Numbered from the stretch's first letter, positions 2,464 through 9,897 are shown. The stretch is DNA of 10,225 nucleotides from Escherichia coli (GCF_003334255.1 NZ_QOWU01000085.1), one strand, 5' to 3'. The notes: generated by a model not told the origin, from the letters alone. Numbers and translations: made by a program.

Positions 2464-3234
2464 ATGGAAACCGTATTGCATGCACTGAAAGCGATGGGAA
2501 AAGCCAATTCTGTTGAACTGGCGGCGCGGCTTGATATCAGCCGTGAAGAAGTTCTCAACGAACTGTGGGAGCTCAAAAAAAATGGCGTTGTTGATAAAAC
2601 GGGTCACACCTGGTTTCTGGCTGTCGAAGGTGAAGCCGGGGTAACCGAAGAGCGGCCAGTAAAATCTGAAACACAGGATATGCTGACCGAAGAGGTCGCT
2701 CCAAAAGTTAGCGCTGACATGATGATTGAGTTTATCTCTCAGGAGGGGGCTAAAACCTGTGAAGAAATAGCGGGTAAGTTCGGAGTTACCACTCGCAAGG
2801 TTGCTTCCACGCTGGCGGTGGTAACCGCAACGGGGCGGCTGGCACGCGTTAATCAGAACGGTAAATTTCGTTACTGCATGCCGGGGGGTAATTTACCAGC
2901 AGATCCGAAAACCGCGCCGGTAACGGAAAATGATGGTAAGGCCTTTCCTCAGCCAGCAGGTGCTGCGTTACCAGTCCGGGAAGCCGCAACACAGGAAGAA
3001 ATTAAAACAGAAACTGTGGCGGACATTGTGCAGCCGTTGCCATCGTTTACCGAAACGCAAGCAGATGAGCTGATTTTTCCGTCCCTTCGCAGGGCAAACC
3101 TGGCGCTGCGCAGGGCGAAAAGTGATGTTCAGAAGTGGGAGCGAGTCTGCGCCGCGCTGCGGGAGCTGAATAAACACCGGGATATTTTCAGTTCGATTGC
3201 TGATATTCCGGTTCATTCACCGACAACAAAGTGA
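2464..3234 (+). CDS. Hypothetical phage protein with two winged-helix-like N-terminal modules
   Basis: 256 aa, ATG with GAGG 10 nt upstream. Two similar HTH-like segments (about residues 1-55 and 85-135) are followed by a low-complexity linker and a basic helical C-terminus. No family recognised. Confidence 0.6.
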   Translation: METVLHALKAMGKANSVELAARLDISREEVLNELWELKKNGVVDKTGHTWFLAVEGEAGVTEERPVKSETQDMLTEEVAPKVSADMMIEFISQEGAKTCEEIAGKFGVTTRKVASTLAVVTATGRLARVNQNGKFRYCMPGGNLPADPKTAPVTENDGKAFPQPAGAALPVREAATQEEIKTETVADIVQPLPSFTETQADELIFPSLRRANLALRRAKSDVQKWERVCAALRELNKHRDIFSSIADIPVHSPTTK

Positions 3235-3713: not shown

Positions 3714-4388
3714 TCATATAGAGGCTGAATCTGATCTTTTTTGTTCACGTCTGGCTTCCACCATTGCAGGCAGAGTGAAGGCGTAGACTAAAAACATTTC
3801 GGTAAAACTCAGGATCTGGCTTGCCTCAATTGGTGTGAAAACTTCATCTGTATGAACTGCTTTATTGGCATCAATTCGTACAATATGAGCCCATTCCTTC
3901 ATCTGTTCAGTGATCAGGCCTTTTTTGTAAATCATCTGAATACGTTGCGACAGCGATTCTTTTCCTGCTTCATCGCCGAGCAGTTTTTTCGTGGAGATAT
4001 CGAGGACTCTGCGACAAAGAATAACCACTGTGTCGTACCGCCTCCTCTGTAAATCCTCTTTTGCCTCAACAAAAGTACGGTCTGCAACCGGGGGCGTATA
4101 TTCTGGTGCGGTAATTTTTTTGACCACAGGATAGATCTTGCGGAAACGGTACTGGCTATTTCCTGAAATCAGAATATCGAGGTCTTTTTTCTGGCTTTCC
4201 GCCATGGGACCGTGATAGTGGTCTGATGGGATTTCAACAATAGCAACACCTCCTCGATGACAACTTCTGCATACAAAAGCGACGTTAAAAAAAGGTGTTT
4301 TTTCAATTTGTTTTTCGGCAAATGCCTCAATAACAGCTCGCTCTTTTAAACAGTGCGGGCATGTGATATCAAAGGAGACTAAACCCAT
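3714..4388 (-). CDS. Zinc-ribbon / DUF4145-like protein, candidate single-gene defence (abortive-infection-type) factor
   Basis: 225 aa from the ATG at 4388, with SD GAGGAA 5 nt upstream on the minus strand; the track ORF extends to 4460 without any SD. The N-terminus has CPHC...CRSC (4-Cys ribbon). The C-terminal ~100 aa (RRVLDISTKKLLGDEAG...IVRIDANKAVHTDEVFTPIEASQILSFTEMFLVYAF) matches my recollection of the DUF4145 consensus (R..GN.aaH followed by EA...L). It is on the opposite strand to flanking phage genes and in visibly lower-GC sequence. Confidence 0.7.
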   Translation of the reverse strand: MGLVSFDITCPHCLKERAVIEAFAEKQIEKTPFFNVAFVCRSCHRGGVAIVEIPSDHYHGPMAESQKKDLDILISGNSQYRFRKIYPVVKKITAPEYTPPVADRTFVEAKEDLQRRRYDTVVILCRRVLDISTKKLLGDEAGKESLSQRIQMIYKKGLITEQMKEWAHIVRIDANKAVHTDEVFTPIEASQILSFTEMFLVYAFTLPAMVEARREQKRSDSASI

Positions 4389-4632
4389 GGATATTCCTCG
4401 CGAAATTAAAGAAATTAACGAAATCATTGAGGTTACTGATCGCCCCGAGTTTACCCTCATGCGTCGTTATGAAACAGGAACCGACGAACAAAAATACATC
4501 ATGGTTGCAGCATTGGCTGTGATGGCGATAGAAAGGGAGCGAAGGGAAAAGGACGTAATGGTTATTCCTGAGAGAAATGATTCACCGGATTTGAGATGGC
4601 AGGAGCCGGAGTGGGATGTGGTAATCCGGTGA
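4387..4632 (+). CDS. Small acidic hypothetical protein (81 aa), divergent from the DUF4145-like gene
   Basis: ATG at 4387 with SD AGGAG 9 nt upstream, ending at a GC hairpin shared with the convergent antitoxin gene. Its start codon overlaps the minus-strand start inside the palindrome CCATGG. No family recognised; it could be spurious. Confidence 0.35.
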   Translation: MDIPREIKEINEIIEVTDRPEFTLMRRYETGTDEQKYIMVAALAVMAIERERREKDVMVIPERNDSPDLRWQEPEWDVVIR

Positions 4633-4653
4633 TTGATATTTCTCTGGGGTAAA

Positions 4654-4674
4654 GCGCCGCCAGAATGACGGCGC
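4654..4674. terminator. GC-rich hairpin (gcgccg-ccagaatga-cggcgc) between convergent genes
   Basis: 6-bp GC stem read directly. On the minus strand it is followed by TTTACCCC, so it may terminate the toxin-antitoxin transcript; the U-tract is weak. Confidence 0.3.
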
Positions 4675-4686
4675 GGTAGTGGAGAG

Positions 4687-4995
4687 TTAAACGAAGCGGA
4701 TCTGGAGTTTTTTCCCTGTAGCACGGGCGAATTTTTTCAGTGTGGCAAATGATGGGCCGCTTGTACCTGATGCAAGATTGCTTTCCATTCTGGTTATCGC
4801 AGTCGCTTTTGTTCCCATACGTTCAGCAACTTCAGCCTGGGTTAAGCCAGCTTCTTTTCGTGCTGCCAGCATTTCATCAAGTAGTGCGAATTCATCGGCG
4901 ATGGCGTCGTATTCTGCTTTTACTGCGGGGTTAGACAACATTTTTTCTACCATATCATCGTGTGTCATGGTAGGTGGGGTACGTTTACCAGTCAT
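4687..4995 (-). CDS. HTH (XRE-like) antitoxin of a type II toxin-antitoxin pair
   Basis: 102 aa with a strong SD AAGGAGG 6 nt upstream on the minus strand. The HTH GLTQAEVAERMGTKATAITRMES is preceded by a helical N-terminal region. Its start overlaps the 3' end of the upstream toxin gene by 11 nt. Confidence 0.8.
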   Translation of the reverse strand: MTGKRTPPTMTHDDMVEKMLSNPAVKAEYDAIADEFALLDEMLAARKEAGLTQAEVAERMGTKATAITRMESNLASGTSGPSFATLKKFARATGKKLQIRFV

Positions 4996-5326
4996 GCTTA
5001 ACCTCCTTCATTCTGGTTTCAGCTTTTCTAAGCTCGGCAGGTGGAGTTTTTTGCGTTTTCTTTACAAAGCTATGCAACATAATGATTCGCTTTCCTTTTA
5101 GCGTGCAGTAAAAAACACGCCCTATGCCTTCCGAGCCCTTAAGGCGGATTTCAAACAAACCGTCGCCAAATGCCTCTGTATGCGGGGAACCAAGATTAGC
5201 TCCGTAAATACGCATTTTCTCCGTGTACCGAATGTACCGGGCTTGTAAGGTCTCAGGAAGAGAAAGGATCTCAGCTTCAACCTCGTCACTGTAGTATTCG
5301 ATAATGTAGTTCATGAGAGTAAACAT
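4985..5326 (-). CDS. RelE/ParE-superfamily toxin (Gp49/HigB-like) of a type II toxin-antitoxin pair
   Basis: 113 aa from the ATG at 5326. The C-terminal half GRVFYCTLKGKRIIMLHSFVKKTQKTPPAELRKAETRMKEV fits the Gp49/HigB-type pattern. The toxin-first gene order and 11-nt overlap with the antitoxin are typical of HigBA-type modules. The GTG-initiated 42-codon extension in the track ORF is not expected for this family. Confidence 0.8.
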   Translation of the reverse strand: MFTLMNYIIEYYSDEVEAEILSLPETLQARYIRYTEKMRIYGANLGSPHTEAFGDGLFEIRLKGSEGIGRVFYCTLKGKRIIMLHSFVKKTQKTPPAELRKAETRMKEVKHDW

Positions 5327-5338
5327 AACAAATTTGTT
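5327..5338. promoter_or_regulatory. Perfect 12-bp palindrome AACAAATTTGTT immediately upstream of the toxin start; candidate operator
   Basis: Read directly. It lies between a -10-like TATATA (minus strand) and the toxin ATG. Type II antitoxins typically autoregulate through palindromic operators. Confidence 0.4.
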
Positions 5339-5356
5339 ATATACATTCAAGGTATG

Positions 5357-5386
5357 TTGACGACAACACATATCCGGGATTATATT
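5357..5386 (+). promoter_or_regulatory. Sigma70-like promoter (TTGACG-N17-TTATAT) on the + strand, back-to-back with the minus-strand toxin promoter
   Basis: ttgacg at 5357..5362 and ttatat/tatatt at 5380..5386, read directly. On the minus strand TTGTCG-N17-TATATA sits just upstream of the toxin ATG. Confidence 0.4.
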
Positions 5387-5448
5387 CTTCGCACGCCAGC
5401 AAAATCTGGCGTCGGGATTAGGAACCCCGGATAGAAACCGCGACAGAG

Positions 5449-5470
5449 ACACGCCGCGAGCGTGTTTTTT
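5449..5470 (+). terminator. Intrinsic terminator (acacgc-cgcga-gcgtgt followed by TTTTT)
   Basis: 6-bp stem, 5-nt loop and T5 tract, read directly. It lies about 60-80 nt downstream of the + strand promoter, which would delimit a short transcript. Confidence 0.55.
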
Positions 5471-5633
5471 ATTGTCGTATGCACACGCACATCTGAATTA
5501 TGGTGGGGCGTATAGGGGAGCTGAAAAGCTCGCCGGTTGGTTTCCCGGTAGTTCCTAACCCTGTACGTCTCGCCACCCGATGATTAGGAACCTGACGGTG
5601 GTGATAGTTTAGAAACCACTCGAGGGCGTCATT

Positions 5634-6305
5634 ATGACAACTCAAGTTTCTGTTGAAACACTCTCCACGATTACTTACAAGCAGATCCCCGTTATCACTA
5701 CCGAACTTTTGGCGCACCTTTACGGCACAGAAGCTATTCGTATTCGCCAGAATCACCACGAAAACAAAGGTCGTTTCATTGAGGAAAAACACTTCTTCAA
5801 ACTTGAAGGTGAAACTTTACGTGAGTTCAAGCACAGAGTAGCTTTTAACTACTCTGTGAAAATTGCCCGTAACGTTCGCTCCCTCATCCTATGGACAGAA
5901 CGCGGCGCAGCCCGTCATGCAAAAATGCTCGAAACCGATCGGGCGTGGGAAGTGTTCGAAAAACTGGAAGACTGCTATTTCAGCCAGGGAAAAACAACAC
6001 AAACCGAACAGCAGTCGCAGATTCAGCCACAATTCACAGCCGAGGAAATCATCCTCCTTTGCTACATGCAACTCTGGATGGAAAAAGCCCAGGACCTTAA
6101 CAAGCAGCTGTACCCCATAATGAAAGAGCTGAACTCCTCATACACGAACAAGCTGTATGACATTGCGTTTGAGACTATCTACATGGTGACGAAGAACAGA
6201 GACGCGCTACTAAGGGAGGTAACACGTCTCGACATGTCAAGTTCCGTTATCCAGCGGGCCATGCCAATGCTGAAAAGCCTGCGGGCAAGACAATTTGAAT
6301 TCTGA
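5634..6305 (+). CDS. Roi-like DNA-binding protein (ORF6N-type N-terminal domain, antirepressor-like)
   Basis: 223 aa with SD GAGGG 7 nt upstream. The N-terminal region (TELLAHLYGTEAIRIRQNHHENKGRFIEEKHFFKLEGE...LILWTERGAARHAKMLETDRAWEVFEKL) resembles the ORF6N/Roi-type domain as I recall it. It sits just before ninB, as roi-like genes do in HK022-type nin regions. Confidence 0.55.
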   Translation: MTTQVSVETLSTITYKQIPVITTELLAHLYGTEAIRIRQNHHENKGRFIEEKHFFKLEGETLREFKHRVAFNYSVKIARNVRSLILWTERGAARHAKMLETDRAWEVFEKLEDCYFSQGKTTQTEQQSQIQPQFTAEEIILLCYMQLWMEKAQDLNKQLYPIMKELNSSYTNKLYDIAFETIYMVTKNRDALLREVTRLDMSSSVIQRAMPMLKSLRARQFEF

Positions 6306-9068: not shown

Positions 9069-9383
9069 TCCAAACTGAGCCGTAGCCTCTGGGTGTCCTG
9101 AATTCATCAGTGATAGTTACGCTGCGGCCTTCTACATACGATTTTTGTGAAAAGCGGGTGGCAAGAGGCTGCGAAATTTTTAAATACCTCACAATTCCAC
9201 AGCTTGATGATTGTCTGGCTGCCGGAGAATTTGTTAAAAATTGCATCGCGTGGTGAATCCCCCTCAGCGGCGGGGCATCTGGCAAAGTGTATGATCCAGC
9301 GAACATGCAAATTCAGTAGCCAGGCTGAATTTACCGGGAGGCACCTGGCACCATGCGACAGACAGAAATTAGGCTATACTTCA

Positions 9384-9406
9384 GCCCCTCTCCGGAGGGG
9401 CTTTTC
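9384..9406 (+). terminator. Intrinsic terminator of unit 1 (gcccctc-tccg-gaggggc followed by TTTTC)
   Basis: Perfect 7-bp GC-rich stem, tccg tetraloop and T tract, read directly. Confidence 0.75.
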
Positions 9407-9596
9407 TGTGCAGGATGTGTCACAGTTTCCTGAATTCTGAGTACTGTCCTGTTACTCAGGGTGCTATATTTTCTGACGTGATGAAAGTCTGCCGGAAGGC
9501 GGAACGTATCGGAAATGACCCAGTAGAGAAAACGTTGACTCAGATACCGATGCTGAGTTACCGGGAAACCGGCATCACATGACCGCTATCCTTCCA

Positions 9597-9619
9597 GGCT
9601 CGCTCCGGCGGGCCTTTTT
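9597..9619 (+). terminator. Intrinsic terminator of unit 2 (ggctcgc-tccg-gcgggcc followed by TTTTT)
   Basis: 7-bp stem with one G-U pair, the same tccg loop as the other two units, and a T5 tract. Confidence 0.7.
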
Positions 9620-9866
9620 ACTGCAGAAAACAGTTTTCCCGTAAAATGCCACGTTACTCACAATTCAGGCTGGCGATTATTGTCTGGCCAGCGGGAAGTT
9701 TGTTAAAAAAATATGGCATGGTGAATCCCCCTGTGCGGAGGGGCATATCAGCGACAGGTGTTTGGTCACACCCCTTATCCTTTCTGGTGCGGGTTCAGGT
9801 GCTGATACTGAACTCACCGGGAGGCACCCTGCACCATGCATGAACGGTACATAGCGCTACTCTCCA

Positions 9867-9890
9867 GCCCCTCTCCGGAGGGGCTTTCTT
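9867..9890 (+). terminator. Intrinsic terminator of unit 3 (gcccctc-tccg-gaggggc followed by TTTCTT)
   Basis: Stem and loop identical to the unit 1 terminator, read directly. Confidence 0.75.
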
Positions 9891-9897
9891 GTTGGAT

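Follow-up and report, generated by a model that had tools for sequence, protein, structure and literature searches.

Comparative sequence and structural analysis of a 10,225-nt stretch of Escherichia coli DNA (GCF_003334255.1, NZ_QOWU01000085.1; hereafter the window, at its full length) indicates that a pair of minus-strand genes, 5314..4687, very probably constitutes a functional type II toxin-antitoxin (TA) operon of the Gp49 (Tad-Ata/HigBA) family, inserted on the opposite strand within the early-right/nin region of a lambdoid prophage of E. coli. An original prediction, made from the sequence alone, had described a toxin-first pair with an 11-nt overlap, composed of a Gp49/HigB-like toxin and a helix-turn-helix (HTH) antitoxin with a strong Shine-Dalgarno sequence (SD). 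All of these points were confirmed on the minus strand, where the two open reading frames (ORFs) share positions 4985-4995, and the profile searches that it had proposed for the toxin and HTH families gave significant matches to both Gp49 and HTH_3. The pair is a further module of the Gp49/HigBA type, ordinary for its kind and already annotated in public records, since the NCBI Prokaryotic Genome Annotation Pipeline (PGAP) calls it a type II RelE/ParE toxin followed by an HTH protein, and phage PhiR5_2 carries the label HigB/HigA. The elements of the operon itself are the following:

5314 (ATG) to 4985 (stop), minus strand: toxin gene, 109 aa, Gp49/HigB-type, RelE superfamily, predicted mRNA endonuclease
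4995 (ATG) to 4687 (stop), minus strand: antitoxin gene, 102 aa, with a variable N-terminal segment (residues ~1-30), an Xre-type HTH (44-98) and a C-terminal strand
5008..5001, minus strand: antitoxin SD, AAGGAGGT, within the 3′ end of the toxin gene and 5 nt upstream of the antitoxin ATG

The toxin matches the Pfam family Gp49 (PF05973) with an E-value of 5e-27 over positions 2-90 of the 90 in the model, as well as phrog_2523 (E 3e-42), and is 43% identical to gp49 of phage N15, the eponym of the family; the sole match in a scan of NCBIfam was far under its cut-off. A search of solved structures by sequence found the HigB chain of the Streptococcus pneumoniae HigBA complex (6af3_A), which the family profile matches with an E-value of 3e-12; the same profile reaches Mycobacterium tuberculosis HigB1 at 1e-5. 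The AF2 model of the toxin (pLDDT 87.5) shows the order β1-α1-α2-β2-5-long α3 of S. pneumoniae HigB, with the long helix at residues 92-108, and Foldseek places 6af4 on top (template-modelling, TM, score 0.73), followed by ribosome-bound HigB1 (7nbu, TM 0.71) and then by RelE, YoeB and YafQ. Residues E66, R68, R73, F90 and K92 of S. pneumoniae HigB align to E55, R57, R66, F83 and K85 of the toxin. Mutagenesis has shown R68, R73, F90 and K92, plus E66, to be important (PMC7984235), and M. tuberculosis HigB1 has counterparts of these active-site residues (PMC9098466). Among 13 relatives, E55, R57, R66 and K85 never vary, and F83 hardly does. Family profile, structural match, fold and conserved catalytic residues together bear out the toxin assignment and, by homology to HigB1 as described on the ribosome (PMC9098466), the protein would be a ribosome-dependent mRNA endonuclease.

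The antitoxin assignment is founded on its match to HTH_3 (E 1e-10) and on the recovery, among solved structures, of the HigA chain (6af3_B) from the very complex matched by the toxin. The antitoxin family profile recovers this chain with an E-value of 9e-8, together with M. tuberculosis HigA2 (7ewc, 2e-7) and HigA3 (6lty, 1e-6), and the protein is 36% identical to gp48 of phage N15. In a scan of viral contigs, which gave 80 loci, an antitoxin homologue lies directly 3′ of the toxin in nearly all of them, over a range of identity that extends from 100% to ~40% (the loci used for comparison are numbered here with an L). The antitoxin SD is the same or nearly the same in relatives with 71-73% toxin identity (group B), and reads GAAGGAGG in L062.

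Both genes are under purifying selection. The ratio of nonsynonymous to synonymous substitution rates (dN/dS) for the toxin, between the window and the 71-73% clade, is 0.13-0.15, falling to 0.04-0.07 in the catalytic half. For the antitoxin it amounts to 0.08-0.14 against group B and 0.39 against the recombinant locus L004, with values for the HTH part of 0.01-0.05 and 0.11, respectively, and of 0.15-0.73 for residues 1-30. The fastest divergence is seen in toxin residues 1-50 and antitoxin residues 1-30, which correspond to the interface regions of the S. pneumoniae complex. L004, the Shiga toxin (Stx) phage 75/02 of Shigella, has a recombination breakpoint within its antitoxin gene (2820-3128): its toxin and antitoxin N-terminus belong to the 71-73% type, whereas from the HTH part onwards the sequence is almost that of the window, with a dS of 0.06 in the shared HTH part against 1.7 in the toxin. 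The antitoxin N-terminus thereby stays together with the toxin type to which it is cognate.

Upstream of the toxin gene, and beyond the end of the antitoxin gene, the putative control elements of the operon are as follows:

5325-5340, both strands: predicted operator, a palindrome of 16 bp without mismatch (ATAACAAATTTGTTAT), separated from the toxin ATG by 10 nt on its upstream side
5322..5330, minus strand: inferred extended -10 (TGT-TATGTT), overlapping the right operator arm and invariant in the alignment of upstream regions (A1)
5345..5350, minus strand: inferred -35 (TTGAAT), 17 nt from the -10, invariant in alignment A1, with its TTG at the same position in group B
4654..4674: GC-rich hairpin, a 9-bp stem then UUU, between the convergent antitoxin gene and a small plus-strand ORF

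The 12-bp perfect palindrome of the original prediction is real, but it is only the core (AACAAATTTGTT, 5327-5338) of one of 16 bp, and the position then given to it, between a putative -10 and the toxin ATG, has to be revised, as it overlaps the likely -10 instead. It is the single perfect palindrome of at least 16 bp in the window. Although one of that length appears in 15% of the shuffles when the full 10.2 kb are shuffled by dinucleotides, shuffling of the 78-bp segment 5315-5392 alone, from the toxin ATG to the start of the isrK match described below, produces it in only 43 of 20,000 cases (0.2%). The motif ATAAC-N6-GTTAT likewise occurs once in the window. Across clades the palindrome is kept at the same place as TA[A/G/T]CA-N4-6-TG[T/C/A]TA, the variable base changing symmetrically in both arms (ATAAC/GTTAT, TAACA/TGTTA, TAGCA/TGCTA or TATCA/TGATA, depending on the clade), and this conservation with symmetric covariation supports the operator proposed at first. 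Good comparative evidence therefore suggests that the palindrome is the site of a dimeric HTH protein, which would occlude the TA promoter and repress its own operon, in agreement with the autorepression shown for a distant Gp49-type HigBA (PMC5906591).

The alignment of upstream regions displays a promoter block, TTGAAT-17 nt-TGT-TATGTT, followed by 7 variable bases and the toxin ATG. The TGnTA of the operator right arm is the same TGnTA of the extended -10, and TGnTAnnnT is present in clades A-D and in L062, and apparently in L079, for which the upstream sequence is partial. Further 5′ of the block, relatives show indels of 4 and 7 nt, and homology is lost entirely in Stx phage 75/02. The match of the putative extended -10 is under the threshold of the consensus scan. 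Two other minus-strand candidates were discarded as TA promoter: the perfect TATAAT at 5384..5379, from which the palindrome would fall within a leader, lies outside the promoter block, has no usable -35, is unconserved (TATAGC in relatives whose DNA is ~80% identical over the region) and is absent from Stx phage 75/02, whilst TTGTCG (5366..5361)-17-TATATA is ruled out by insertions of 4 and 7 nt in the spacer of relatives. At the other end of the operon, the minus-strand region of the hairpin (4625-4700, 76 nt) folds at -20.7 kcal/mol with a z-score of -2.7, and, even if not called by the consensus terminator scan, the hairpin is probably a weak terminator of the TA operon.

The gap between the -10 and the toxin ATG is fixed at 7 nt, filled by nine different 7-mers, and the sequence before the toxin ATG shows no SD. 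Such a fixed gap before a toxin without SD would point to a leaderless toxin mRNA, for which the odds seem about even. In the favoured scheme, homology suggests that the toxin, a RelE-fold and ribosome-dependent endonuclease, would cut mRNA, and that the antitoxin would neutralise the toxin through a variable N-terminal segment co-evolving with the toxin N-terminal helices. The antitoxin would also dimerise and bind the 16-bp palindrome through its Xre HTH; as this covers the spacer and the extended -10, the bound antitoxin or TA complex would shut the operon off. Starting at an ATG 7 nt past the -10 and devoid of an SD, the toxin would probably be poorly translated from a leaderless mRNA, whereas the perfect SD of the antitoxin may provide the antitoxin excess that a toxin-first operon needs.

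Several observations weigh against this scheme, or against parts of it. By consensus the proposed TA promoter is weak (4/6 + 4/6), with the TG extension as its only rescue, and it was not called by the promoter scan. In the clade of 48-53% toxin identity the toxin ATG overlaps the predicted -10, a misfit with the leaderless model; leaders precede the toxin in more distant relatives (the N15 type, L062 and the Acinetobacter plasmid copy), in N15 together with an SD. The toxin start has changed from ATG to ATA (the equivalent of 5312-5314) in six loci (L003, L008, L019, L020, L090 and L091), phage PhiR5_2 and several E. coli genomes among them, in which the toxin otherwise shows 1 substitution in 109 residues. 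These losses in near-identical copies suggest that the toxin is dispensable in at least some lineages. Finally, some Gp49-type toxins, such as HigB2 and HigB3 of M. tuberculosis, are nontoxic (PMC9098466). An in-frame ATG at 5326 was considered as the true toxin start, which would turn the ATA into a harmless M5I change, and was rejected because of an in-frame TAA in L035, L039 and L048 and an ATC in L036. For the loci with ATA, PGAP picks arbitrary starts, resulting in a truncated "toxin" of 76 aa or an extended one of 153 aa.

The closest comparisons are found within the family Tad-Ata (COG4679-COG5606), regarded as a toxin-first branch of the RelE superfamily whose toxins cleave mRNA in a ribosome-dependent manner (PMC2701414, PMC5906591, PMC11980606), and of which N15 gp49 is cited as a member (PMC2701414, PMC5906591). 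The N15 gp49-gp48 pair, Tad-Ata of the Paracoccus plasmid pAMI2 and the SXT module share with the window the same combination of a Gp49 (PF05973/COG4679) toxin and a COG5606 Xre antitoxin. According to its title, the study of Dziewit et al. 2007 reports that N15 and SXT carry toxin-antitoxin stabilising systems. Like the window pair, that of N15 is a toxin-first operon on a temperate phage, with the motif FVKKTQKTP and the catalytic residues in common, but its gp49 has an AGGAGG SD, a leader and another upstream inverted repeat (TTCACT-N4-AGTGAA), and its genes abut with an overlap of 1 nt instead of 11. Moreover, N15 is a plasmid prophage, for which stabilisation makes obvious sense, whereas the window pair resides in an integrated lambdoid prophage.

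Among solved structures, S. pneumoniae HigBA (6AF3/6AF4) is the best match in sequence and fold for both proteins. Its HigB shares the order of secondary structures, including the long C-terminal helix, and the aligned active-site E, R, R, F and K, and its HigA likewise combines toxin-binding elements at the N-terminus with an HTH and, at the C-terminus, a strand for dimerisation (PMC7984235); it differs in being a chromosomal system of a Gram-positive bacterium, with ~20% identity and an unrelated operator. The mechanistic model for the window toxin is M. tuberculosis HigB1 (7NBU/7AWK), the toxin of a toxin-antitoxin-chaperone (TAC) system, which has a Gp49-like fold at TM 0.71 in spite of an identity of only 18%, and which has been shown on the 70S ribosome cutting A-site mRNA (PMC9098466). 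The TAC system requires a SecB-like chaperone, whereas the window pair is without one. As for regulation, the Gp49-type HigBA of Acinetobacter baumannii plasmid pAB120 has the same reverse gene order; its HigB is a ribonuclease that also serves HigA as co-repressor of the operon promoter, and the system stabilises plasmids (PMC5906591). This HigB belongs, however, to a different Gp49 branch, being ~20% identical to Tad-type toxins (PMC5906591). For this reason, the Acinetobacter plasmid that carries a toxin homologue 66% identical to that of the window represents a separate, uncharacterised locus and not the characterised HigB.

With regard to what such a module does for its carrier, the explanation that fares best, although its chances lie somewhat short of even, is that of a selfish addiction or stabilisation cassette without defence function, similar to what is reported for the relatives on N15, SXT and pAMI2, which would persist in prophages by post-segregational killing and recombinational hitch-hiking. 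The N15 gp49/gp48 relatives (43% and 36% identical) are cited in this sense, as a TA stabilising system (PMC2701414, PMC5906591), and the toxin family is very common on plasmids, with relatives in 3780 plasmid records, 2506 of them conjugative. The cassette is mosaic and mobile, with sharp homology boundaries; in addition, the start-codon losses suggest a weak host-level selection for the toxin. Against addiction, an integrated lambdoid prophage is rarely lost and would gain little from stabilisation, the SXT homologues gave no measurable stabilisation of SXT (PMC2654960), and the catalytic half of the toxin is so strongly constrained by purifying selection as to indicate a maintained activity. 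In the loci L053-L067, whose toxins are 38-53% identical, the pair lies directly 3′ of the end of a tyrosine-recombinase-like gene (with a ...RYAHLSPD... C-terminus, identified by eye), and the toxin ATG overlaps the predicted -10, so that expression must differ there.

A second and somewhat less probable explanation regards the pair as chiefly a prophage system of abortive infection or exclusion, in which an invading phage would free the toxin (for example, through depletion of a labile antitoxin), translation would stop and the invader would fail. Together with the neighbouring minus-strand gene, the pair would then form a defence spot:

3714-4388, minus strand: DUF4145 gene, encoding a Cys4 zinc ribbon and a C-terminal DUF4145/HEPN-like domain

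The protein matches DUF4145 with an E-value of 8e-9, and none of the residues C10, C13, C40, C43, R171 and H179 varies among 30 homologues. The Rx7H spacing is like that of RAZR (PD-T7-4), an RNase validated as an abortive-infection protein, in which R146 and H154 are catalytic (PMC13017515). Its model has a C-terminal HEPN-like domain with weak matches to HEPN folds in Foldseek, and the PADLOC model of PD-T7-4 matches residues 85-183 weakly (E 2e-3). A search of PDB sequences retrieved nothing at an E-value of 10 or below, and RAZR entries were missing among the Foldseek matches. The predicted domains and spaced residues of the neighbour are those of the RAZR architecture. This likeness to a validated abortive-infection protein (PMC13017515) counts in favour of a defensive role for the TA pair, and so does the location of the pair on the strand opposite to the lytic operon with a promoter of its own, which gives it the look of a moron expressed in the lysogen. 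PD-lambda-2 (bioRxiv 10.1101/2022.05.12.491691) is an example of a validated defence system of E. coli with a HigB-like component, the toxin core has a PADLOC match to NsnC (E 5e-8), and E. coli JNEC-KY176 carries an extra HigA-family gene at the same spot. Nevertheless, none of the PADLOC system models matches the pair along its entire length, and the abundance of its relatives on plasmids fits addiction at least equally well. The pair and the DUF4145 gene are not co-inherited: the 71-73% clade has the TA pair without the DUF4145 gene, which indicates two independent modules. The defence or addiction islet of the original prediction thus holds as far as two defence-type genes do stand side by side, but not as a unit inherited together.

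The additional gene of JNEC-KY176 (L092, 2177-2482) is an apparently solitary "HigA family addiction module antitoxin" gene between a small ORF and the TA pair, and suggests that the spot may be an insertion hot spot for such genes. Next to the DUF4145 gene, an 81-aa ORF on the lytic-operon strand (4387-4632, plus strand, phrog_8371) has an ATG that overlaps the divergent DUF4145 start codon within CCATGG, and was present in every fetched locus examined with the DUF4145 gene; one may speculate that its product serves the RAZR-like protein as partner or as self-immunity factor.

Unlike the DUF4145 gene, the operon that diverges from the toxin promoter, with small RNAs (sRNAs) in its leader, is a conserved partner of the TA pair. 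Its elements, which make of 5380-6305 (plus strand) a P1-like antirepressor control region, are the following:

5357-5386, plus strand: divergent promoter TTGACG-18-TATATT, from the promoter scan, driving the isrK/C4/antirepressor operon
5393-5470, plus strand: isrK, Rfam 69.2 bits (gathering score 50)
5496-5580, plus strand: C4 antisense RNA, Rfam 66 bits (gathering score 45)
5380-5433, plus strand: c4-a1b1, just below the gathering score
5634-6305, plus strand: Ant/ORF6N antirepressor gene, with isrK and C4 in its leader

The predicted transcript start of this promoter (5393) is the first base of the isrK match. The C4 loop (5551-5561) finds its complementary target, GATTAGGAACC, twice, as a direct repeat at 5416-5426 and 5582-5592. 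The TA and plus-strand promoters adjoin each other back to back, the plus-strand -35 lying 6 bp from the TA -35, and isrK/C4 or a C4-like sRNA-Xcc1 is found divergently upstream of the toxin in all sampled loci of 56-100% toxin identity. In L021, two isrK-C4 units (2081-2269 and 2737-2925), ~650 bp apart, precede the same TA pair. The block GATATGTGTTGTCGTCA, which holds the plus-strand -35, is invariant even in Stx phage 75/02, where isrK is missing at that place, and an inverted repeat, TGTTG-ACGA-CAACA (5355-5368), overlaps the -35 of the isrK promoter. This TGTTG-N4-CAACA repeat was considered as a second operator and rejected, as its half-sites are everted and the repeat is absent from group B (by eye); nor was there, near the isrK promoter, any second operator with up to one mismatch to ATAAC-N6-GTTAT.

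Two readings of this arrangement have little probability. In the first, the TA and isrK/C4/antirepressor operons would be one back-to-back unit in which a labile antitoxin, or mRNA cleavage by the toxin, couples stress to antirepressor expression; the TA pair would then be an input to the lysis-lysogeny switch, leading from stress to prophage induction. The divergent arrangement kept at 56-100% toxin identity speaks for it, yet there is a single operator, on the TA side. It is just as improbable that the HTH protein is mainly a regulator of the divergent operon, like Mnt on Pant in P22, with the Gp49 protein as a co-repressor or modulator and no growth toxin: the adjoining -35 elements, the C4-type RNAs of all loci sampled at 56-100% toxin identity and the invariant block of phage 75/02 would suit it, but the sole operator-like site, with no second ATAAC-N6-GTTAT in the window, ends 16 bp upstream of the plus-strand -35 and is centred near -60, the catalytic residues of the toxin are intact and conserved, and distant relatives of the pair have neither C4 nor ant as neighbour. 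A functional type II TA operon continues to be the favoured interpretation of the pair.

As for the wider setting, the queried stretch 4600-5640 matches the E. coli G1/2 chromosome with 100% identity, and the window corresponds to the early-right/nin region of a lambdoid prophage. Few E. coli genomes hold the module: at a coverage of at least 80% it occurs in 30 of the 5426 complete ones. Its plus strand carries, in this order, cII, a replication gene, a DnaC-like ATPase, DUF1627, a DUF977/Ren-like gene, ninB, ninE, rusA, ninH and a Q-like gene, and there are two minus-strand inserts, the DUF4145 gene (4388..3714) and the TA pair (5314..4687). No tRNA genes were found in the window. The replication-protein-like ORF (609-1691) has at its start codon the second-longest palindrome of the window, a perfect 14-bp TGCGTAATTACGCA at 610-623. 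In addition, three tandem STnc100-like sRNA elements are located on the plus strand 3′ of the Q-like gene, at 9218-9411, 9447-9622 and 9687-9896 (139, 30 and 130 bits, respectively).

The general picture of such TA modules is left unchanged by these findings, and their practical value, as it stands, is one of annotation, for a Gp49/HigBA module that is intact and whose operator and promoter can be defined. Three traits may interest specialists. A C4-type antirepressor control region accompanies the module, which in this phage has a RAZR-like gene as its neighbour. The right operator arm that appears to double as extended -10, with a specificity base shifting symmetrically by clade, would offer a natural series for the study of HTH-operator co-evolution. 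Moreover, the combination of an apparently leaderless toxin and a perfect antitoxin SD, if true, would be a simple way for a toxin-first operon to keep its antitoxin in excess.

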